From Podarcis pityusensis (lineage: Eukaryota), in the NCBI GenBank assembly GCA_964106645.2, contig OZ067038.1: DNA of 64,000 nucleotides; one strand, 5' to 3'. Shown here in pieces: positions 3,880-41,500 of this stretch (its first letter is position 1; each line of letters opens with the position of its first letter). A model generated the notes under the pieces. The model was not told the DNA's origin. It saw only the letters and a list, made by a program, of their open reading frames with translations, and did not search any database. The position numbers and the translations under genes were made by a program.

Positions 3880-5100
3880 CCTGGGCTCCACCGCCGCTTC
3901 AGTCCCCCTACTTCGGCTCAATGGATTGCGCCACGAAGTATCCCGGCCATTCCCGGAAAAGAACGAACCTGGACGCGTCCACTTAGGGAGGGGAGGTGGA
4001 AGAGGAGAGCAGAGTCTCGTTTCAAACCCCGCCCAAGGGAAAGCAGCCCATTGCTACGTGACGTAGTTCGGAAGGGGGCGAGCTGGACGAGCCCATTTCC
4101 GAAATAAACGGGGGTAGGGTAAAACAAACACATTTGCTTCATTTTTAACTTGAACTCCCTCTCTGTATGAGGAAATAATCAACCCCCCACAATAATAAAA
4201 CAAAACCCTTTAGGGCCAGCCGGCGTCACGCACTCGACCCTCAGCACGACGCGCTTCTCTTCTCTCTCCCCCCTCCCCCCACTGTGTGACGGCTGTGAAT
4301 AATAGTTCCTTCCCAGCAGGCCTCTCCTCTCTCCTGCCCGTCACCCGCGTGTTCTCGCGTGGTTTCCTCTCCTCGCGGGGGAGGTTGTGTGGGGAGGGGG
4401 AGTAGAAGAGGAAAAGGGGTGGAGACTTGAAGCCGCTTCAGACCGCCCGCCTTCTCCGTCCTCCGTCGCGCCGCTTAGTCAAGCTCGTGCTCCTTGGACG
4501 TTCCTTTCCTGCCTTAAAAGTCGGTGAGGCCCGAGGCGCGCGGCGGGATTGATAGCATGGGGGTGGGTGGGGAGAGAACGCGGCTTGGCGGGCGCTGATT
4601 GGGCGGGGAGCGCGGCGCGAGGCTGGCCCGTAACGGCCGCGCTGGCAGGGCCGGTTGCTGGGCCTGCTTCTCCCCTCCTTCTCCTCCCCCCTCCTTTCCC
4701 TTCACTCGCCCGCGCCCTCTGGCCCGGCCCGGCCTGGCGGGTAACAAAGCGGCGGCCTCTGTTGGGCAGTGACGCCGCTGAGGGAGGGAGGGGACGCGGC
4801 TGTGGCGGTGGCCGGGAGGGGCAGCAGCGCGGGACTCAAGCCTAGCCGGGGCGGCGGCGCTAGCGGGAGACTTCCCCCTTCCCTTCCTTTCCGGGGCCAT
4901 CGCTTCCAGCTCCTGCAGCGGCCGCCTCCGCCCGGAGGGCTCGGTGGGTAGGCCGTGAGGGAGGGAAGGAGGAGGGCGCCTCGGGTCGGCTGAGGGAAGA
5001 GTCTTCCGGGAAAAGGCCCGTTTCCGGCCCAGGCAGCGGCACGAGGCGGGGCACCCCCCCCCCACAACTACACAAAAAATACGTACACACGGCCTACCCG
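3880..5100 (+). promoter_or_regulatory. BZW1: CpG-island promoter of BZW1 with non-coding exon 1 (probable donor g|gtgagg after 4523)
   Basis: High GC and CpG density, GC boxes, CRE-like motifs (4054-4066), donor at 4524; the next exon (7226) carries the AUG. TSS not determinable. Confidence 0.75.
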
Positions 5101-7235
5101 TGTTTGTAGATGGGGGGTGAAGGGTGGGGACACCTCCCGGGGCTGAGTGGGTGGAGCCTGGGGGGAAGGAGGAGGAGGGGACTCAACGTTTGGCGATTGC
5201 ATTTTGAAAAGAATTTCTCTTTTTAAAAAAATAATAATAATTTTTATTAAGTTTTCCATTTTAATAATCCAATCGCATCACATTGAATATTCCAGATTGT
5301 ACAAATACATATCATAAAGTCCAAATATTTTGCCAAATTATAATTTTTTGTTGGGGGTTCCCATGCTTCAAGTTCAGTAGGGTCCAATCATCTCATGTTT
5401 CTACTGCCTTGAGTGTCAGAATTTCTCAGCCTTTTTGCTTCAGTGCAAGATGATTAGCTGGCACGTTTTCCAAAATCTGTATGCGCTCGTGACTCTTGGT
5501 GGTGGATTTTTTTTTGGGAGAGACCATGGTGGGGAAAGGAGGAGTTTTAAATACCACGAGGATGGGTGAAATGAGCCCTGTGGATAAAACAGCTTTTTGC
5601 ATCCCCCCCCCCTGCATTTTTTGCAAAAGTGTGAAGGGCATCTTAAGTTATTTTCCTTCTCCCCTGGCACCCTGAATTGATACTCTGTCCTGATGTAACA
5701 TTATTCCAAGGCACATGCGATTGGGGGGGGGGGCTTTCCCCTAGCTAAGCAGTAGCCATGGGGTTGCTGGTAAGTTTGGTCCCCTCAAAATCCAAGCCCT
5801 GCCACCCCAAAAACGAGAAAGAGGATAGCTAGTTTCAGTCTGGTTATGCTATATGCTCCCGGAATGCATTCAGGAATTTTGAGAAATTTTGGCCCATCCC
5901 CAAAACTTCATTCACACCCCAATACCTAGAAACATGCCGGAGGAATGTTGGCCCTGCCTTTTGTTTTATAGACAGCTATGATTTTTTGGAAGAGCAGGTA
6001 CTGTAATCCTAAGCGCACCTGCTCAGAATCATCCCATTTTGTTCAGGTGCAGTTAGTTCCAGGGAAGTGTTCATAGGACTACAGCCTTGTTGGGGTATAC
6101 AGAGGACCACAAATGCCCCTTTAAAATACCCCTCTCGTTCTTGCTTACAGTTTAATCTGGAATGGACAGGGCTTTAAACATTGTGATACTCTTGCTGCTC
6201 CGCCTGCCCCCCCAACCCCTCCCTTTTCCCATGAAGCCTTAAATGCAGTTCATGCTTTTGCTTTTTTGTGTTAAGGCTGGATTCTATACATGCAATTAAT
6301 ACGTTTGGACTGAGAGCCTTTCTTTTTACTTATAATTATGAAGTCGAGGTGTGAGGACATAGCCACGTACCCCTTGGCTATCTTGATACATTCATCTTAT
6401 GATTCATCTCACTGCAGGCAGTGTCAGGCAACTGGATCTAACCAACTTAAAATCTATCACAGTGCCCCTAGCCTAGTGTTGCTGTGGGGCATTGCACTGA
6501 AATAAAAAGATTGCTGCACCATTTAGCCAGCAGTGCTTGGAGCCCACTGACATAGGAAAGGGCCCACAAGAGAACACTTTATCAAGGAGCTAGTCCTGAC
6601 TTAATTATGGCCTTACTTAATTTTAGGCAGAGTACTGGTAAAAATCATGCGGTTGGAAGTCCCCCGATTCCAAGTTAAGGTTGACCCCAAGTTCATTAAT
6701 AGGCCTTTATAGTCTCTTGGTCTCAGCCCCAGCGCTCTGCTGTGTTGATAACTGCTGGTCCAGTATCAACTACTCACCTCAGAAGTCAAACTATTTGCTC
6801 TTCAAACCATAGATTCAGATCATGGCAATGCTTGATTTGTTCTAACCATACTGTAGTTGGTTCAATTTAGATCTTAGGGAAAACTGTGGTAAGAACCAAC
6901 TGGGAAAGGGAGAAGGGAATTCTTATGCAAGGGGGGAAAGGAGGAAGAAAAACGCAGCATGTTTCTAATCTCTCAGCCCAGATTTATTCAATTTAGGCAT
7001 CATAGAACCTGAAGTCTGTTATATATTTTGAAACCTAGGAAAAGGTTTGTAAACACTTAATGTTTCCAAATGTTAAAGTAGAAAAAAATAGTTAGGAAAC
7101 CATTAAGATGCATTTTTAGGATGTTGCCAATAGCTAGCTGGCAGGTGCTTAACTGAAGTCTTCCCAAACTCTTAGGGATGATCTGTTTAACTGATACATC
7201 TTGAAAATTTTGTTTCTTTCCATAGGGTGTCTTTT

Positions 7236-10200
7236 ATGAATAATCAAAAGCAGCAAAAGCCAACGCTATCAGGCCAGCGTTTTAAAACTAGGAAAAGAGG
7301 TAAGCTAATTATATGTATGCTTAAATTGTTTCTGTCTAATACAGTTGGACATCTGAGAGAAAGTTTGCTTGTGGTCTGTATTGTGTGTGTTTTTGCGCGC
7401 GCGCGCGCGCACACACACACACACACACACAGAGAAAGCTGCATTGACAGTTTGGTGGAAAGTCTTTAGGATTGATCTTTGATCAACTATACCTTCTTTA
7501 TATTAAGGCAGCTATGTCTTATATATAACACAACAGTGAGAGTAGTGTCAATATCCTTGTTGTTGTTTTCTTCACTTATCACCTGCTTTTAAAATAAAAA
7601 TATTTGTTTTAAACAAAAATATACTTTGACCTAAAATCTTAATTTTATTAAAGCCAGTGAACTAATGAACCCATTCTCCTTTGTCTCCCAGTGATAGGTT
7701 TTTAGTCTGTTTAAAAATCAGATTGCAGCCTTTGATTTATCTGACACACTGATGGTCTCACATACTGAGCTTGAACAAAATTGTTCACTGCGAGTTGTAT
7801 CCAGCAGCATCCTAGCATGAGTGAAATAGACTTATGCCCATGCAGCAGGACTTCCCCCTTCCTCTCTGTCTAATCCTGTATGCACCCTTCCGCACCTGTC
7901 CTTCACCCAAGGATCACAGGGTGGTTTACAATATCAGATAGTATAAAACCACTAAAATACATACCATAGTAACAAACAAAAAACAACAATCTACACACAG
8001 TTTAGAAGGCCATAGATTGGCTCATTAGCCAAAGGCCTGGGAAAAGCAGCAGCAATGGATGCAGAAGTAGCCCTAACCCGGGTATCTGTTCCTCCAGAGA
8101 GAATGTAATCCCATCAAGACCAGGCAACCTCCTATCCATCCAGTCAAGAGAACCACCCACTAACAGTACCTCAATCTTATCTGGATTGAGTTTTAGTTTC
8201 TGGCTCTCATCCAGTCCATTATCTAGGCAAGACAATGGTCCAACACATCCACTGCCACAGCTGCAGATGTAAAGGAGAAGAAGAGCTGTGTGTCGTTAGC
8301 ATATTGCTGGCAACATACTCTAAAACTCCAGATAACCCCACTCAGCTGGTTCATGTAGATGTTAAATACTAGGGGGAATACAATCGAACCCTGAGAAACC
8401 CTACATTGAAGGCTCCATGGAGCCATATGGTATTTCTACCCATGGATTCAAATTTTCATGGTTCTTTAATGCTTGGCTTTAGGAGAGATGTTTGTTTTAG
8501 ATGGGTAGGTGCTATATTTAACTTTTCTTCAAGCCAGTCAACTACGAGCTTTCAAAGGTGTTATGGCTAGGAAAGGGCCTTAATTTTGCCTCTGCACAGG
8601 GCGTATATCTCTTGCTTGCTACTATGACATATAAATAGTTCAGCCAAGTTGCTATGTGGCATGCCAGAAAGCACAGGAATACTAACTTGTGGGTAGTAAT
8701 TATGTAAAGGAGTGTTTGTCTGTTCAGTGTTTCTTCAGGAAAAGGAGAGAAAAGTGTAGCTTTAATGAATTCTAAAGTGAAATGTTGTTATTTTAAAGAT
8801 TATTTTTGTATGGTTTCAGTTAAATGACTTGTGAAGGTGAAAGCAAATCTTGATCCTATGACTTAAAAGATATAGCACATGAACTTCTGTGCCAGCATAA
8901 AAACATCACAAAATTGATTATTGTCATTGAGCCAGAACCCTGAATCTAATACTTAGAGTTGGGATAGGTCCATGATACGAGGTCTTATTTGAACTCATTT
9001 CTGTAATCCACGTTCAATTTTATGGTGGACATTCCAGCTTTTTTGTTTTGTTTTTGTTAAACCTTTGAAACTGAAGGAGCTGCACACTTCATGTCAGGAT
9101 GTTCTAGGGAAAAGAGTGTAATCTGCTGTTTAGTACTGCTCTGCTCAAATAAGTGAGAAAGAATGAAACTGAACTGAGTGAAAAAGGTGGAATTCCAATA
9201 AACAAATTAGTAGGTGGGAGTGGGATCCGGAAGCAGAAATAGATAAGTACGGTCTTGATCTGCTGAAACATGGTGGGTGAGCTGGAGTGCACACATGACA
9301 TAATACTGTGGTACAGTGGTGCCTCGCAAGACGAAATCCAGTTACAGATGGGTAGCCGTGTTGGTCTGCCATAGTCGAAGTAAAAAATTCTTTCCTGTAG
9401 CACCTTAAAGACCAACTAAGTTAGTTCTTGGTATAAGCTTTCGTGTGCATGCACACTTCTTCAGATACACTGAAACAGAAGTTACCAGATCCTTCTATAT
9501 ATTGAGAAGGTGGGGAGGGGTATTACTTAGAAGGGTGGTGGGAATCGGAGATTGGCAGATAGCTGAGATGAGCCTGTTGACGACTCTTAACGACTGTAAT
9601 AGGTCTTACAGGAAAAGGCAAGGGGTGAGAAGGTGAGAAATGGCTTAGTCATGTATAATGAGATAAGAATCCGATGTCTCTGTTCAGACCAGGTTTCTCT
9701 ATTGTTTTAAGTTTGGTAATGAGTTGTAATTCAGCAGCTTCTCTTTCCAGTCTATTTCTGAAATTCCTTTGTAGTAAAACAGCTACTTTGAGATCTTGTA
9801 TAGAATGTCCTGGGAGATTGAAGTGTTCTCCTACTGGTTTCTCTGTTTTGTGATTCTTGATGTCAGATTTATGTCCGTTTATTCTTTGGCGTAAGGTTTG
9901 GCCTGTTTGTCCAATATAGAGAGCTGAAGGACACTGTTGGCATTTGATGGCATACACAATGTTAGACGATGAGCAATTAAATAGTCCCGAGATGGTATGT
10001 GTGATGTTGTTGGGGCCAGTAATGGTGTTGTCCGGGTGTATGTGGCAGCAAAGTTGGCATCTGGGTTTATTGCAGGCTCTGGTGCCAGTGTCCGTGTTAA
10101 GTCTGGTTGTAGTATTATTGTGGGTTAGGAGTTGTTTAAGATTGGGTGGCTGTCTGTAGGCAATGAAAGGTCTTCCTCCCAGAGCTTGAGAAAGAGAACT

Positions 10201-13200
10201 GTCATTGTCCAGGAGAGGTTGTAGATCTCTGATGATGCGTTGAACTGTTTTAACTTGGGAGCTGTATGTGATGACTAGTGGAGTTCTGTTATTTTCTTTT
10301 TTGGGTCTGTCTTGCAGCAAGTTCTCTCTGGGTATCAGTCTGGCTCTGTTGATCTGTTGTCTAACTTCATCTGCTGGGTATTTTAGTTCTGAGAAGGTTT
10401 GCTGTAGATCTCTTAGGTGAGAGTCTCTGTCTGTAGAATTGGAACAGATGCGGCTGTAACGTAGTGCCTGGCTATATACAATGGACTGTTTGGTATTGTC
10501 AGAGCTGCTTCCAGATCCTAGCTCACAGAGGATCACGCTAGCCAGCGATCATTAAATAAAAGTCTTTATTGAGTTACAGTTTCCATTCTCAAGCTGCTGC
10601 GTGCAACTCTACGTCTCATGGTTAGATCGGCGAAGCTCCATCTGAGTCTCCGCCCCTTGTACACCAACTTAATATCCTAGCCTTGCTCCACCTTTTCCGC
10701 CTGACTGTTCTTCTCTGGGTCCCTCTGCCCCCCGGGGTCTCTTCCTTCCGGGATTCCTCTGACGCTGACGCTGACCCCCCTGACTCTTCTCCCTCCTTTC
10801 GGCGGGCTTTAGGACCTGGCTCCCTTTCCGGGCTGCCTACTGCGCCACCTTCCTGTGCATTTGAACTTGGCACGCGCGCCCAACCTTCCACCTTCCGTCT
10901 GACCGTTTCTTCGCTCCCCGATGGAGGTGTGGCCACTCCTGACTCGTGCCCTCCCCCCTGTTGTGAGCTGCCAGCGCTTGATCCCTGGCTCTCTGGCGGT
11001 GACGCTGGTCCTGATTTCCAACTGCTCCCCTCTGAGTCCCCTCTGGCTCTATCTTCCTGGGGTGTCCCCCTAGGCTCCCCCCTTGCCCTGGCCACTGGTG
11101 CTCCTTTCTGTGAATCTTCTGATTCACTGGAAAGACTCGGAGATCTCGGGTCGTCGTCATCACTCATCTTTTCTTCTGCCTCCTCTCCCTCGCTCTCTGT
11201 TTCCTCCCTTGCCCTTGCCTCTGCTCCTGAACCCCTGACAGGTATGTTTGGGATGGTAGCTAGAGGCATGTAGATATGTTTGTCGGTCAGTTGGTTTACG
11301 GTATAAGGTGGTGTCTATGCGTCCATCCTGTATTTTTATAGTAGTGTCCAAAAAATGTATTTCTTGCATAGATTGATTCATTGTAAGGTTGATTGTGGGG
11401 TGAAAATCATTGAATTTCTGGTGAAAGGTGTCCAGGGTCTGTTGACCATGTGTCCAGATGATAAAAATATCGTCAATGTATCGTAGGTACAAGAGAGGTT
11501 TGAGTGGGTAGGAGTTTAGGAAACGTTGTTCTAAATCTGCCATGAAGATGTTGGCATACTGTGGGGCCATGCGGGTGCCCATTGCTGTGCCGCTGATCTG
11601 AAGGAACAGGTCATCACCGAATTTGAAGTTGTTGTGGGTAAGGACAAATTGGCAGAGTTTGGTGGCAAGGTCCGCTGTGGTTTTATCTGAAATGGTGTTC
11701 CTTATAGCTTGTAAACCATCGTTGTGTGGGATGTTGGTATACAGAGATTCCACGTCCATAGTATCTAGTATAGTATTGTTGGGAAGATTATTTAAAGATT
11801 GTATTTTCCTCAGAAAATCTGTGGTGTCACGTACATAGCTGGGAGCACTGATGGCATATGGTTTCAGAACAGAGTCCATATAACCGGAGACACCCACTGT
11901 AATAGTGCCAATACCTGAAATGATGGGGCGTCCTGGATTTCCTGGTTTGTGTATTTTAGGTAGAAGATAGAAAGTTCCTGGTCGAGGTTCTGTTGGTGTG
12001 TTGGTGAGGATCTGTTCTTGGATGTGTGGGGGTAGCTCCTTAACAATCTTGTTCAGTTCTTTCTTGTATTCTTGTGTGGGGTCTGAGTCCAATTTTGTGT
12101 AAAAGGCGGTATTGGAAAGTTGTCTGCGAGCCTCCTGAATGTAGTCAGTTTTGTTCATGATGACGACAGCTCCCCCTTTGTCTGCTTCTTTAATTATAAT
12201 GTTTGGGTTGTTTCTGAGATTATCTATGGCTCTCCTTTCAGCATGGTTTAGATTTTGTTGTAAGCGATGGTGTTTTCTGGTTACATCTGTTTGAAATCCG
12301 TTCTGGTTACATCTGTTTGAAATCCGTTCCGCGAGTCTCTTTGTCTTGCGGTTTTTTATCTTGCGAAGCACGGCTATTAGTGGCTTTAAGAAAAAGGAAA
12401 CAAACTCGCAAGACGTTTCGTCTTGCGAAGCAAGCCCATAGGGAAATTCATCTTGCGGAACGACTCAAAAACGGAAAACTCTTTCATCTAGCGAGTTTTT
12501 CGTCTTGTGAGGCATTCGTCTTGCGGGGCACCACTGTATTAGTCTTTGGATAACAAATGCTCAGTATCTTGAGGATCAAAGAAAACTGATACCTGAGTTC
12601 TAAATGTCATAAGTGAAAGAAGATCCTCTCATATTCATGGAATTTAGTTCCATGTAATGTTTTCAGAAATTTTATTTATAATTTTCATTATTACCATCAT
12701 GTAATGTTTTCAGAAGTGGAGTAGCAAGCAATTATAACAACTTTGAATTTCTGTGGGTGGTACTAAAATTTTAGCCCATTATAAATAGACTGCTAATTAA
12801 GATTTCAGGTGCAGCTGATATTTTGATTGCTTTTTACCAGATATTCTTGGCTTAAGAGAGTGCTCAAACTGACAGCACTTACGGTATGCCAAAAATGATT
12901 TTGCTGTGACTGTGGCCCTTAGTTTTCTGTCTGTTGTATACTTCTGGTATCTTACAGTGAGAGTATCTTGTGTTCTAGTACAGAAAAGTGGCTTATTTGA
13001 AGCTGAGAATCTGGCCATTCAAAGATCTTGAGGAATATAGCAAATTCATGAAGGCAAGCGCATGAAGTTTTTTTTTTTTAATAGATGAGTTTAAAGAGAA
13101 CTTCTGCAATGCATTCATATGAGGGTTTTTATAGAGAGAACCAGAATGTAATAAAATGGCGAGAGGTAGAAATAGCTCTTTGAACTGCTGGTGAGAGTTA

Positions 13201-16200
13201 GCTTGCTCAGTGATAAACTGATTTGTGTCAGAATCACTATTTAAAGTGAAAGGGAAATACCTATGTTTGTGGAAGATTGAAGCAGACCTTAATGGTTTCT
13301 CAGTCATGAGCGCTGTACTCATGATTTCCACATCCTGAAAATTGGGCTGGATACTGGTTGATAATTCAGGTAATTATTGTCAATTTACTGGTGCCACGCC
13401 AGAAAAAGAAGGGTGTGGCCAAAGGCTGATGTGGAACCATTTTATTTTGATCTATAGAACATGGGTGCTAACTTTTTAAAGGTAACTTTCTTTGAATACA
13501 AAGCACACTTCTTGATGGAAAAGGGTTTGTTTTGTATTTTGCTAAAAATACCAAACCATATATCATGCAAAAAGGGGGAAAGCATAGATCTTTAAAGGGC
13601 CTGGTGATGGGCCTCTCCAAAGTGTAATGGAAATCTCCAGTAACTTTAAAGTGGAAAATGGCCATAATATGCTCCCCTGATGTGCGGTATATTAAATGCC
13701 AATCTTCTATCTCAGCAGTGTGCCATACAGTGTAATAGTTGTCCATATACAAAACTTGTTGTGTTTCTTTGAGTTGTGATTATTGAGATGTTTTGGACTA
13801 CAACTTGCATTAGCCAAATAGATGTTGTAGTCGAGAACATCTGGAGGGCAGCTGGCTGGCAAAGGCTGATGTATCAGCAGTATGAACCTGTACAACAAGC
13901 GTGAGAGATACTGGGGAACTGGGTTCGGGACTTCACATATACAGAGGCCATGTCATGCCCCAGCCCTAGAAGGCTCTTTTACCCACTACTGTACTGTTCT
14001 CTAGTGAATTAGCATGATTTGAGTGTCCTACTTCCTGGTCAACCCTGACTCTCAAAGGGTATTTCAAAGAAGAAAGGTTTCCAACCTTTCTGTTCCTCAG
14101 CATCTATTGAGAAGCTGCATTACAGAGTGGCCCCACAGTAGGTAATACTTCTTTAGAATCCGCTTTCTTTCTTCTTTTGACTCAAGTTTGCTGTCATCAT
14201 TCACAATATCAGTAAAGAAAAATCCTTTTATCTTGTTCTGTGAACCACTCAGAGACTTCTGGGTATAGGGCGGTATATAAATTCTAGTAATAGTAATAAA
14301 TTTTTTTATCTGGCTCCACTATTTTTTCCAACTGCCAGCCTGAATCTAACTGCCACTTTGTTGTGTGTGTGTTATTTGTACCCATATAATTTGTTGTGAT
14401 GAATTTCATTGATTGAACTGTGTACCTAAATTGAGGCCACTCTCTGTAATATGATTTTATATTTAAAAAATGTAATAAATAGTACTATGTTCACAGAATT
14501 TTTATTTATTTATTTATTGCAGATGAAAAAGAGAGGTTTGACCCCACTCAGTTTCAGGACTGTATTATTCAAGGTTTAAATGAAACTGGCAGTGACTTGG
14601 AAGCAGTAGCAAAATTCCTTGATGCTTCTGGAGCAAAACTTGATTATCGCCGCTATGCAGAGACACTCTTTGACATTCTGGTGGCTGGTGGAATGCTGGG
14701 TAAGTGACCTTAAGAGGGGCTTTTTGGTTTACAAGCGTGCCTGTGTATTTGCATGGCTGGATCTTAAAACTAACCAACCATTCATTGGTCATGATCTCAG
14801 TTGCTACTGATTATGCAGCCTCTGTACCCTCCAGAATATAATAGCATTAGAGCTCTTTTCTCTGTGAAGGGCTTCGCAAAACACAGAAGTGACGTAGTAT
14901 CTTACGGTAGCTGTTAACAACTGATGATCCAGTTCAGTTTAGGAAGATGAAAGCTTCTAGTCAGCCTTCAGTGTTTTCCTGAAAAACTAGCATCCTTGTA
15001 AAAAGGTGGGGCTCCTAATTCTTAGCACTGGGAAATATATTTATCTTGCTCCGTTTGCCATTGAACTTTAAGTAGTTGGTTTTCACTGTCTGTTGATTTA
15101 CTTCACATTGCATTGTATTAAACTTAAACGCTGTTCTAATTAGTGAAAGTGATCTTAGCCAATGTTAGCTTTTCTTGTAAAACTAAACACCAATTTCTCA
15201 ATAGCCCCAGGTGGTACACTGGCAGATGACATGATGCACACAGATGTCTGTGTGTTTGCAGCACAGGAAGACCTAGAAACGATGCAAGCATTTGCTCAGG
15301 TTTGTTTTGCTGGTTTTTTAAAAATGGCTTTTCTTGATTCTACCTCCCTGCAATATAAACATCCACAAAAAAGCAGATTGCATGTATAAAGAGTTCGTGA
15401 TTGAGCCCAACAGGGATTGTTGAGGGCTTAATTGCTGAGGGGTACCTGCTGGCACTGACCAGAGCCGGAGCAGTGATGGGCACAGCCAGAGACAAAAGTG
15501 TTCTGGATTATGGAGGGGCGGGATTTCCTTATCCTCAAGTCAAATAATAAGGAAAAAAGTTTTTAAAAATCAGTTGATTTTATCAGGTAAAAATACTGCT
15601 TCTTCCAGTTGTTCTGAAATTACATAGAGAGGGGGAAAGCCTGACAAAATTAGGAAATTGACAGAAAGAAAGTTACTGCTGGGATGCAAAGATTCTGGGG
15701 GATCCCCTTGCTGGGGAAGATTCTGAAGGCGCTAGGGGAACATAAAATGAAAGCAGGACTGCATATGGCCCCTAGGTATCAGGTTGCCCACCTTTTCTAT
15801 GAAAACTATAGTCTTAATTGCTAACATTTGTCTTTCAGGTCTTTAACAAGCTGATCAGGCGTTACAAATACCTGGAAAAAGGCTTTGAGGATGAAGTCAA
15901 AAAGGTATTGCAAGTTGAAACTATTTTTTGGACTATGGCCTTATAGATACTCCTGTATATTTGTGTGTTTGTTACTATTTAGCAAAACATTTAGTCTGCA
16001 TGTGCACATATTCCTTGGCTAGTCACTTAGGACCTGAAAGAAAAGAATAATTTCTGTCCCATTTATAAAAGTTCCATTTTCTGGTTACCTGGAGGATATA
16101 GTTCTCCATAGGCATCAGAGTAAGTGGCTGTGCAGAAACTCCGTGTAAGACTTTCAGTCATTATAAGAAAAACTCCGCAAAAGGGATTCCTTTTCTTGTT

Positions 16201-38500: not shown

Positions 38501-41500
38501 AATTATTTAAACCATTATTTTTTGCCAATCTGATTTTTTGTGGTGTTAGAAAATCCAGATTAAAATGTAACAAAATTTTGCTAAAAACAACTGTGTGTAA
38601 AACTTGCATAGACAAGCTGCTGGCAATGCAAAATAAACTCCTGCCTGGAAGAACCTTTCATCTAACCAGCATTCATTTTATATTAATATAGCTATAATGG
38701 AGAAAGTTCCACATAAATTTGAGATTTAGACAAGGACTAAAACCTCCAGACAAATTTTATACAATTTGGCATCCCTTTGTTACATACACAGTGGAAGCAT
38801 CTTTTTCAAGACAACCTTGACAAACCTGGAATGATACTTGGGAATCAAATAACATAAATAGGCTTCTTTTATGTGTATACAACTTTTATTCTTACTTTTT
38901 TCTTTCATTCTTTTTTCCCCTTTCCTTTTCCCCCTTTTTATTCTTGCTTGGTTTTTCATCTTTTAATTTTCATCTGTTGTTATGAAATAACAAATCTTTA
39001 TCCGAACGCCACATTCATTTATGTTGTGTTCTACTATTTGCAGCCGATGGAATGAACTGAAGACTGGCTTATCTTTATCTGGTGAAACTATTTTGAAAAC
39101 AGAACGTGCCTCAAAGGAAACTGGATCAGCGGGTGCAAAAGCGTCAGGGCGTAGCTGTTAATTACAGCAGACTGCCTACTAAGGAATGAAAGCTCCTATT
39201 CTAACAGGAAACAAGGATGATTCACTAACCCTACCTACCTTTTCATGTTCGATTGTACCTTAATGAGAATTTAATTTAACTGAATTACCGTATTTTTCAC
39301 TCTATAACACGCACCCGACCATAACACGCACATAGTTTTTAGAGGAGGAAAACAAGAAAAAAAATATTCTAAACGAAACAGTGGATGTATGATTTTTTTG
39401 GTTCATGCTGTGGCCACAGACATGTAATCTGATGGTGAGTTTGGGGTAACCCAATGCAAAAATCCTGAGTATCCATGTGGATCCGTGCTTTGTAACCACG
39501 TTTTAAGTGGGGAGGGAAGGAAAAGCACTCAAGGGACAAGGAACACGCGTGGGGTGGGTGGAGAAGGATGCTGTTAATAACGCAGAAGAGGGGTATAAGA
39601 GGAGAAGGCTCCTGTCCTCTCCCGCTTTGCTCCTTTAAAGCAAGGAGGCTCTCTGTCCCTCTCTCCTCCCCACTCAGCGGCTCTTCTCCCGCTTTGCTGT
39701 TTCAAAGCGAGCCACGGAGGAGGGAAGGAAGGGGAACCATGGATCCTCTGCTCACGACTGCAGAAGACCCCCCCGCCATCCATAGGCATTCACTCCATAA
39801 CACGCACAGACATTTCCCCTTACTTTCTAGGAGGAAAAAAGTGAGTGTTATGGTGCAAAAAATACGGTATTTTATTCAATTTTTATCCAACCATTTCCTC
39901 CCAGGAGCTGAAGGTCGCATACATGATTCTCCCCCCCACCCCATTTAATCCCTACAAAAACCCCATGGGGTAGGTTAGGCTAAGAGAGACCCAAGGTCAG
40001 CGACTGACCTAATGTCATCCGGTTACCGTATTTTTCGCTCTATAAGACACAGTTTCTCTCTCCTAAAAAGTAAGGGGAAATGTGTGTGCGTCTTAAAGAG
40101 CGAATGCAGGCAGGGAGGCTCTGCTCAGCGCTCCCTTTAAAGAGCCGCGTGGAGCGTGTGTGTGGCTCTTTAAAGGGAGCGCGGCTCTTGGGGGAGCCTT
40201 AGCCGCAGGCAGCCTCTCCCGGGAAAGGGGAGCCTTCATCCCGCTACCCAGGAGAGGCTGCGCGCAGCTATCCCATAAGCCAGGACAGCCACTGGGATCA
40301 CTGCACAGCGATCCCGCTTGCTGTCCTAGCTTCTGGGATTCAGAATTTTTCCCCTCTTGTTTTCCTCTTCCAAAAACTAGGTGCGCCTTATGGTCTGGCG
40401 CGTCTTACAGAGCGAAAATACGGTAGCTTCGTGGCTGAGTGGGGGTTTTCAACCCTGCTCTCCCAGATACTATAGTCCAACACACTCAACTAACTCATCG
40501 CACCGGCTCTCGATTTGGTATATGAAATCTAAACGTGGAAGGTGACTGCTCATATTATTTAACAGACAGAGGTGGGCAACCTGTGGCCCTTTAGCCTAAT
40601 TTCAATAGCCCTTTGCAAGCCATCAGTTCAGACCTCTGGAAAGAGCAATGTGTCCTGTCTCCCCCTCCTGTAGTGTGTATGGGGGCGGGGGGGGAAGGAA
40701 AGAGAAGGGGGGGCCATCACTTACTTCACATGCCTTGGGTGCTCTTTCACAGAATAGCTCTATTTTAATTTCTCCCACATCGGTGTGTAGGGTCACAGCC
40801 TGGGGGTGGTGAGGAAAAATTATTATTTATTCACAGCAGTTCAGGCAAACAGCAGCCAAATCAGCAATACAATTAAGCCGGGTTATATCAGAGCAAGAGG
40901 AGCAGCACACACAAAAGTATCTTAAAATTATTTGCAGACAGCCCAAAAGTTTAATATTTATTCTTTTATTTTACTTATTTATTGAATTTATATACCGCCC
41001 TATACCTGGAGGTCTCAGGGCGGTTCAGAGAACAAAATCAAAATATAAAACCACAATGTATATAATAAAAATAAAAATAACAACCCAATAACGCACGCCG
41101 CCCCCAAATTCTGTTTAGCTATCCTTTTGCAAGTAAAGTAATGCATTTCCACAACTAGTTAGCTTCCCCCCTACCCCAGGTGTCTGGCTCAGAATGCACA
41201 CATAGAATATCAGGATGCAAACAAAACTCTCCCTTCAAACAGGCAGGTTTTCCGATTGTGGAAACTTGACCCCTCTTGCAGGAATTACAAGGTATGGGCA
41301 TTCAACCGGCTTCCGCAAAGATGCTTCAGGAATGTTTAGGGGAAAGGCCTAAATAACCTTTGCACTGAAGTCCTGATCAAGTCTGCAGCCCAGAGGAAAA
41401 AATAATTCAACTGCAATGTATTTATGTAGGACGGATCCTATGCATATGACACAGGAAGCACATGCAACTGAGTTAAAGGTCACAGTCTGGGAAGTGGGGA

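Follow-up and report, generated by a model that had tools for sequence, protein, structure and literature searches.

RESULTS

A hammerhead motif within a nested Penelope-like element

The window, a 64-kb stretch of the Podarcis pityusensis genome (contig OZ067038.1), carries on its plus strand a gene with a 5MP1/2 HEAT domain, which we take from its N-terminus to be BZW1 rather than BZW2. Antisense to this gene lies a Penelope-like element (PLE) spanning 12293 to ~9337, whose 3' pseudo-LTR (pLTR) harbors a 38-nt minimal type I hammerhead motif (9468-9431, minus strand), found by sequence inspection 181 nt past the stop of an RT plus GIY-YIG open reading frame (ORF). The initial annotation placed the motif in intron 2, a numbering that assumes a putative non-coding first exon in a GC-rich stretch near 4400-5100. 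Unit coordinates refer to the 3,010-bp family unit (from tandem copies) as found at locus L047, in which stem I starts at 567, the cut follows 600, and 664 marks the first ATG; a window position is approximately 10035 minus the unit position. The features are as follows.

7226..7299, plus strand: first coding exon of the host gene (ATG at 7236; next exon from 14523)
9312..12538, unstranded: older TIR element with 24-nt inverted ends and TA, within which the PLE is inserted
11241..12293, minus strand: RT part of the PLE ORF (domain analysis, alignment to family copies)
10497..11240, unstranded: LTR-like insert of 744 bp with TG...CA ends and a 5-bp duplication, interrupting the PLE ORF
9649..10496, minus strand: 3' portion of the PLE ORF, including the GIY-YIG domain and a CX4CxxC linker (ORF and domain analysis)
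9469..9648, minus strand: pLTR from ORF stop to hammerhead, recurring every 3,010 bp in tandem copies
9492..9501, minus strand: TATA-like box of a predicted promoter (starts at unit 534-536), ~30 nt upstream of the 5'-end cluster
9469..9474, minus strand: initiator-like hexamer directly before stem I (unit 561-566; sequence and 5'-end pile-up)
9468-9465 and 9434-9431, minus strand: stem I, GUAU/AUAC (sequence)
9464-9458, minus strand: hammerhead core CUGAAGA (sequence)
9457, minus strand: extra A after the core (sequence)
9456-9443, minus strand: stem II (sequence)
9442-9439, minus strand: GAAA, followed by GC, U16.1 (9436) and U17 (9435)
Between 9435 and 9434, minus strand: predicted cut (sequence)
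9337..9430, minus strand: tail past the cut site, i.e., the start of the next unit, with family 3' ends near 9382 and 9340

The carrier has the single ORF of endonuclease-bearing PLEs, RT followed by GIY-YIG, and the linker between the two domains matches the CX2-5CxxC pattern that marks Neptune/Nematis PLEs (PMC8557442; this and the other papers cited are used for the parts available to us). Family copies form partial tandems and inverted 5'-truncated arms and have a short tail (~42 nt, against a 30- to 40-bp criterion). By its linker, the element would be a young Neptune-type PLE; its youth follows from the 41 matches listed, all of which were 100% identical over 261 nt. The window copy is 5' truncated ~840 nt downstream of the full unit's first ATG, carries a 744-bp insert missing from the other aligned family copies, and is unable to make protein. 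The insert contains long open frames on both strands, one of which was scanned, with no Pfam match. Insertion of the PLE into the TIR element produced a 7-bp duplication (9333-9339; 12293-12299/12319-12325). At the PLE 5' junction, an exact 26-nt duplication (12275-12326) contains two copies of the target duplication, resembling a first attachment that was aborted. The TIR element (9312-9339 and 12300-12538) has TA ends and internal 17-nt repeats and is presumably Tc1/mariner-like. With it, nesting extends over three levels.

Structure and detection of the motif

The initial annotation had described an intact core, stems I and II, and a predicted cut between 9435 and 9434 on the minus strand, all of which are borne out by the sequence. 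The motif contains the core CUGANGA...GAAA...UH together with helices I and II; A9457 is the extra base separating position 9 from 10.1, G9456-C9443 forms the pair G10.1-C11.1, G9438/C9437 provides the palindromic 15.2-16.2, and the location is the pLTR. Its assignment to the minimal hammerheads of PLEs likewise stands, as all four traits listed for these metazoan motifs by Cervera and de la Pena 2014 (PMC4209133) are present and a turtle motif of the same build is known. The nearest relative is the Chrysemys picta bellii row in Fig. S3 of PMC4209133, which shares the 4-bp helix I, CUGAAGA plus the extra A, G10.1-C11.1, and GAAA-GC-UU with palindromic 15.2/16.2. It differs by C-G for U-A in helix I, G-C for U-A in helix II, and another helix II loop. 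U at position 17 occurs in many rows of the same figure.

A structural descriptor that demands the core together with both helices, I and II, matched the 64-kb window once, at 9468-9431, consistent with the single copy noted before, and matched none of 30 windows simulated under a first-order Markov model. A loose core-only pattern gave 9 overlapping matches at 5 places, compared with 2.7 expected, and the core alone is therefore weak evidence. The core matches at 14921-14957 and 39057-39093 (plus strand) and at 1905-1939 and 14072-14100 (minus strand) fail the helix requirements and are likely due to chance. An Rfam covariance-model search of 7000-12000 found no hammerhead at E values up to 10, this minimal form being devoid of stem III. 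The single-strand fold of the motif was ordinary (z = -0.9). The examined family loci yielded no further hammerhead families. Overall, the motif is an ordinary minimal type I hammerhead of a known kind, with predicted self-cleavage; as a lone monomer, the window copy is likely inactive.

Family size, variants, and constraint

Three variants of the motif together account for 6,674 exact matches in the genome. Among the first 100 matches listed, 50 had loop II UU with C17, 28 had AU with U17 (the variant of the window copy), and 22 had AU with C17. In DNA contigs of three related organisms, the motif changes listed at a frequency of at least 6% comprised H17 and one CpG, while each flank carried several, and helices I and II show compensatory pairs relative to the turtle motif. 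This pattern fits selection on the predicted fold in active lineages. At one locus (L324), two repeats carried different bases at the subfamily-diagnostic position of loop II and at a few further positions.

Relation to the host transcript

The initial annotation argued that the host pre-mRNA is spared because the motif is antisense. The premise holds: PLE and motif are antisense to the host gene, so the window motif cannot cut BZW1 pre-mRNA. The argument says little, since lone minimal hammerheads failed to self-cleave in vitro (PMC4209133) and coverage by RNA reads is uninterrupted. In a related organism, reads of both strands crossed the cut site with undiminished depth and no pile-up of ends. 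As reads span the cut site on both strands and lone motifs stay uncut in vitro, sense copies appear to be tolerated by hosts as well. Antisense to sense reads over the motif numbered 402:340 and 409:252 in two runs, a rough proxy for the orientation bias of intronic copies, with an inferred strand convention. Among the sources listed as carrying the stretch, none was marked as RNA. The predicted promoter, if it fires, would direct antisense RNA toward the host promoter.

The motif begins at a predicted transcription start

5' ends of family copies were taken from a tail marker (7,731 matches), using the loci of the first 96 among 100 matches listed; segments overlap in origin, as arms of inverted pairs were counted separately. 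Of 95 tail-bearing segments, 45 begin at unit 560-569 and 3 at 596-604; in short family copies, the predominant 5' terminus is the 5' base of the motif. Two copies beginning exactly at the cut site had been suggestive of starts there, a candidate not borne out by genome-wide controls. Breaks at the cut site, detectable only if the flank base is a purine, were found for 16 matches (14 junctions), with no excess over neighboring control positions, which gave 34 matches (24 of the 30 examined being junctions) and 16 matches (10 junctions) among the 7,731. Where the base before stem I was not the templated T (n = 1,898), it was G in 1,177, A in 489, and C in 232 cases; G thus reached 62%, compared with 31% expected. 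In L1 and SVA, an untemplated G is accepted as marking capped templates (PMC4859970).

The TATA-like box is retained in diverged subfamilies, some of which have a perfect TATA. The hexamer at 9469-9474 presumably represents an Inr consensus. From these features, we infer a predicted transcription start zone at 9472-9468. The motif thus likely starts where transcription of the element does, a point missed by the initial annotation. Boundaries at 567, 654, and 696 recurred in contigs of three related organisms and in RNA reads of a fourth. Counting against the predicted start, neither the starts nor the ends of RNA reads, taken from a related organism, piled up at any point of the stretch. A D. 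virilis-like intron with its 3' end at the AG preceding stem I was considered and rejected, as the RNA reads contained no spliced joint.

Two sequence peculiarities were seen in this region. At unit 564 (window 9471), 29 of 59 5'-terminal segments keeping GT at 565-566 carried T, compared with 1 of 94 internal passes; possible origins of this T are untemplated addition, slippage by 6 nt within the upstream repeat, and a modified cap-proximal A that was misread. RNA reads on L047:560-640 showed strand-specific A>G changes (T>C on the other strand) of 10 to 35% at several sites, including A15.1 (57 of 368 reads), and such changes were nearly absent from the DNA contigs of other organisms. The pattern looks like ADAR editing of head-to-head pairs of short copies.

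Short and long copies differ in their 5' boundaries

3' ends cluster near unit 655 and 695 (86 segments) and also near 750, always past the cut site, and these clusters are likely internal RT start sites. Target duplications of at least 8 nt flanked 9 of 26 non-inverted short copies, compared with 2 of 650 swapped flank pairs. Copy classes were separated with a marker that directly follows the long tail (133 matches), with 86 loci examined among 100 matches listed; 3 loci of one array, 1 duplicate, and 5 places were left out. Copies stopping soon after the marker were classed as short (stubs of 90 to 185 bp), and those continuing into the ORF as long. Among 50 short copies, 27 begin at 550-571 and 3 run upstream. 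In contrast, 28 of the 36 long copies run seamlessly into the upstream pLTR, 7 are truncated further in, and 1 begins at 550-571; 2 more long copies end at the start site via an inverted arm. The classes differ both in starts at 550-571 (Fisher P = 1e-7) and in upstream runs (P = 3e-12), which likely reflects two kinds of RNA template. Supposed full-length copies beginning at the hammerhead edge turned out to be stubs.

One locus (L313) passes two start sites without a break, and 1 pair among 100 start markers listed was spaced 3,010 bp apart. Within-locus repeats were present in 12 of 13 loci, at least 99.3% identical but with private differences. None of 139 segments was a subfamily recombinant mapping to the cut site; two recombinants switch subfamily between positions 552 and 585-606. 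Four short stub arrays (L126, L142, L209, and L087) have periods of 185, 184, 74, and 59 nt, respectively, and in the first three the 5' end is joined to an RT start site. Such arrays are possible seeds of retrozyme-like arrays.

DISCUSSION

Relation to known systems

The kind of motif is known; new here are the control at the cut site, the count of G, and the partition into stubs and long copies. Start-site boundaries or a cap G for PLE hammerheads were absent from the literature searched (titles and abstract openings, mostly of papers outside subscription), and no mention was found in the available parts of PMC4209133. The minimal hammerheads described there are, like the present family, mostly dispersed single motifs, which were ascribed to truncated PLEs.

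A close parallel, PAc (Poseidon, Anolis carolinensis; PMC11167929), is likewise a lizard-type PLE with a hammerhead at the pLTR-ORF junction, in which internal RT starts define the tail in a two-site pattern, templates are uncut, and no RNA ends lie at the cut site. The PAc hammerhead cuts only with protein, uncut RNA is the main substrate, and hammerhead mutants left insertion in vitro unaffected, i.e., the one reconstituted PLE needed no cleavage in vitro (PMC11167929). PAc differs in belonging to the Poseidon clade and in its ORF beginning inside stem II, whereas the present family has a Neptune-type linker, places its first ATG 63 nt beyond the cut, and shows a third cluster of 3' ends near unit 750. 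By eye, the PAc template contains a TATA-like run ~45 nt upstream of the hammerhead (PMC11167929). The start-site layout may be shared by Poseidon elements. D. virilis Penelope is likewise transcribed from within the pLTR, with its start upstream of the hammerhead, but the internal promoter is TATA-less and a 75-bp intron ends at helix I (PMC2377424); the TATA reading is therefore not general.

Animal non-LTR retrozymes (PMC7229834; bioRxiv 10.64898/2026.07.22.740005) resemble the stubs as short, non-coding, pLTR-derived type I units with dispersed monomers. They differ in being tandem repeats processed to small circles, those of PMC7229834 mostly with canonical hammerheads, whereas the stubs mostly occur singly or head-to-head, carry no predicted promoter, and resemble dead-end products. 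The window copy stands alone and is ORF-attached rather than part of a tandem array, and stub arrays of two or three units are few (L126, L142, L209).

A proposed role for the hammerhead

Taken together, the window holds a minimal hammerhead motif in a broken Neptune-type PLE copy. The motif is likely inactive alone and likely forms the extreme 5' end of a capped element RNA, and we rate this reading as more probable than not. A TATA/Inr-type promoter in the pLTR would start transcripts at the first bases of stem I. RT would start internally, ~55, 95, or 150 nt past the cut site, and on capped, uncut RNA would reach the cap, yielding stubs of 90 to 185 bp, often as head-to-head pairs or with target duplications, which would make up about half of all hammerhead copies. 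Since the window copy keeps the predicted promoter, it could still seed stubs.

The least certain step concerns the long copies. A linear capped one-unit RNA never restores the promoter, yet most long copies have it. The ribozyme's job may be protein-assisted cleavage of a dimer at both hammerheads, after which a ligated circle would template more-than-unit copies that restore the promoter upstream of the ORF; this is a serious candidate, which we rate at somewhat below an even chance. Circles by cleavage and ligation were proposed in PMC4209133, and the model expects seamless passage with no scar at the cut site, so that support for a step that leaves no scar is indirect. No subfamily recombinant among the 139 segments mapped to the cut site, and the catalytic dimer gains no predicted stability over two monomers, both of which speak against the reading. 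The fuller version is more tentative, and we hold it to be rather unlikely as a whole: a template switch by which capped uncut RNA gives promoterless stubs, and a doubly cut, ligated 3.0-kb circle gives every replication-competent more-than-unit copy. The genome would then record both paths, including the cap G and perhaps the misread cap-proximal A.

That fuller version is matched in likelihood by a reading in which long copies arise through linear read-through of rare multi-unit master loci or host genes, and the hammerhead acts as a brake or switch between translation and copying, a cut 34 nt below the cap removing the cap and a cut at the 3' copy removing the RT start sites. Two-unit arrays do exist (L313 and the single pair at 3,010-bp spacing among the 100 markers listed), uncut RNA is the dominant PAc substrate in vitro (PMC11167929), and the within-locus repeat identity of at least 99.3% is expected by either model. 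Linear capped templates should, however, leave many ORF copies ending at the start site, and such ends were found in 1 of 36 directly and in 2 via an inverted arm. cDNA arriving at the cap might also jump by homology to a second hammerhead-plus-tail repeat, as in retroviral strand transfer, which would make the stubs strong-stop products and leave cleavage uninvolved. Jumps from the 5' end to an RT start are visible as the short tandem stubs L126, L142, and L209, and the two recombinants between 552 and 585-606 would agree with such transfer. Internal passes nevertheless lack the terminal marks (T566 occurs in all 94 and A564 in 93, compared with terminal segments carrying G566 in 32 and T564 in 29 cases), a test weakened by the fact that most of the 94 passes are 3' pLTR. 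On balance, strand transfer appears improbable.

Slightly less probable still is a non-catalytic motif, a relic or passenger retained for its overlap with a promoter or protein-binding sequence. It does overlap the predicted start zone, folding and co-folding do not favor the active form, Naiad PLEs proliferate without canonical hammerheads (PMC8557442), and 8 of 9 Xenopus retrozyme dimers were uncleaved (bioRxiv 10.64898/2026.07.22.740005). Yet the tolerated changes are those that catalysis allows (H17 C/U, loop II, and compensatory stem pairs), and PAc cleavage requires C3 and G8 (PMC11167929).

The initial annotation had also noted that stem II is a perfect 14-nt palindrome, which is correct, and had suggested that it aids dimerization, which did not hold up. 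Any hairpin with a self-complementary 4-nt loop is a palindrome, as occurs by chance in 1 of 16 cases. Although loop II showed no frequent change among those listed for the reads or contigs of four related organisms, 50 of the 100 first matches listed carry the non-palindromic loop GC-UU-GC, and the palindrome is therefore dispensable for amplification. In co-folding, a 14-bp stem II duplex reached -28.0 kcal/mol, compared with -10.9 for the catalytic dimer; the palindrome thus favors a non-catalytic duplex and would compete with the active form. In the nearest-neighbor model, pairing into the catalytic dimer (-10.9) brings no stability beyond that of two monomers (-12.0). Hammerhead stems II and III stack coaxially, from which linking two cores via 14-bp and 4-bp helices seems sterically doubtful, and a swapped stem II by itself forms no stem III. 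That the stem II palindrome drives intermolecular dimerization into an active ribozyme is hence very improbable.

The function of hammerheads in endonuclease-bearing PLEs has been called "still unclear" (PMC8557442). With thousands of near-identical copies and sharp boundaries, the present family allows the circle hypothesis of PMC4209133 to be tested directly, and the stub boundary accounts for genomes with thousands of lone minimal hammerheads.
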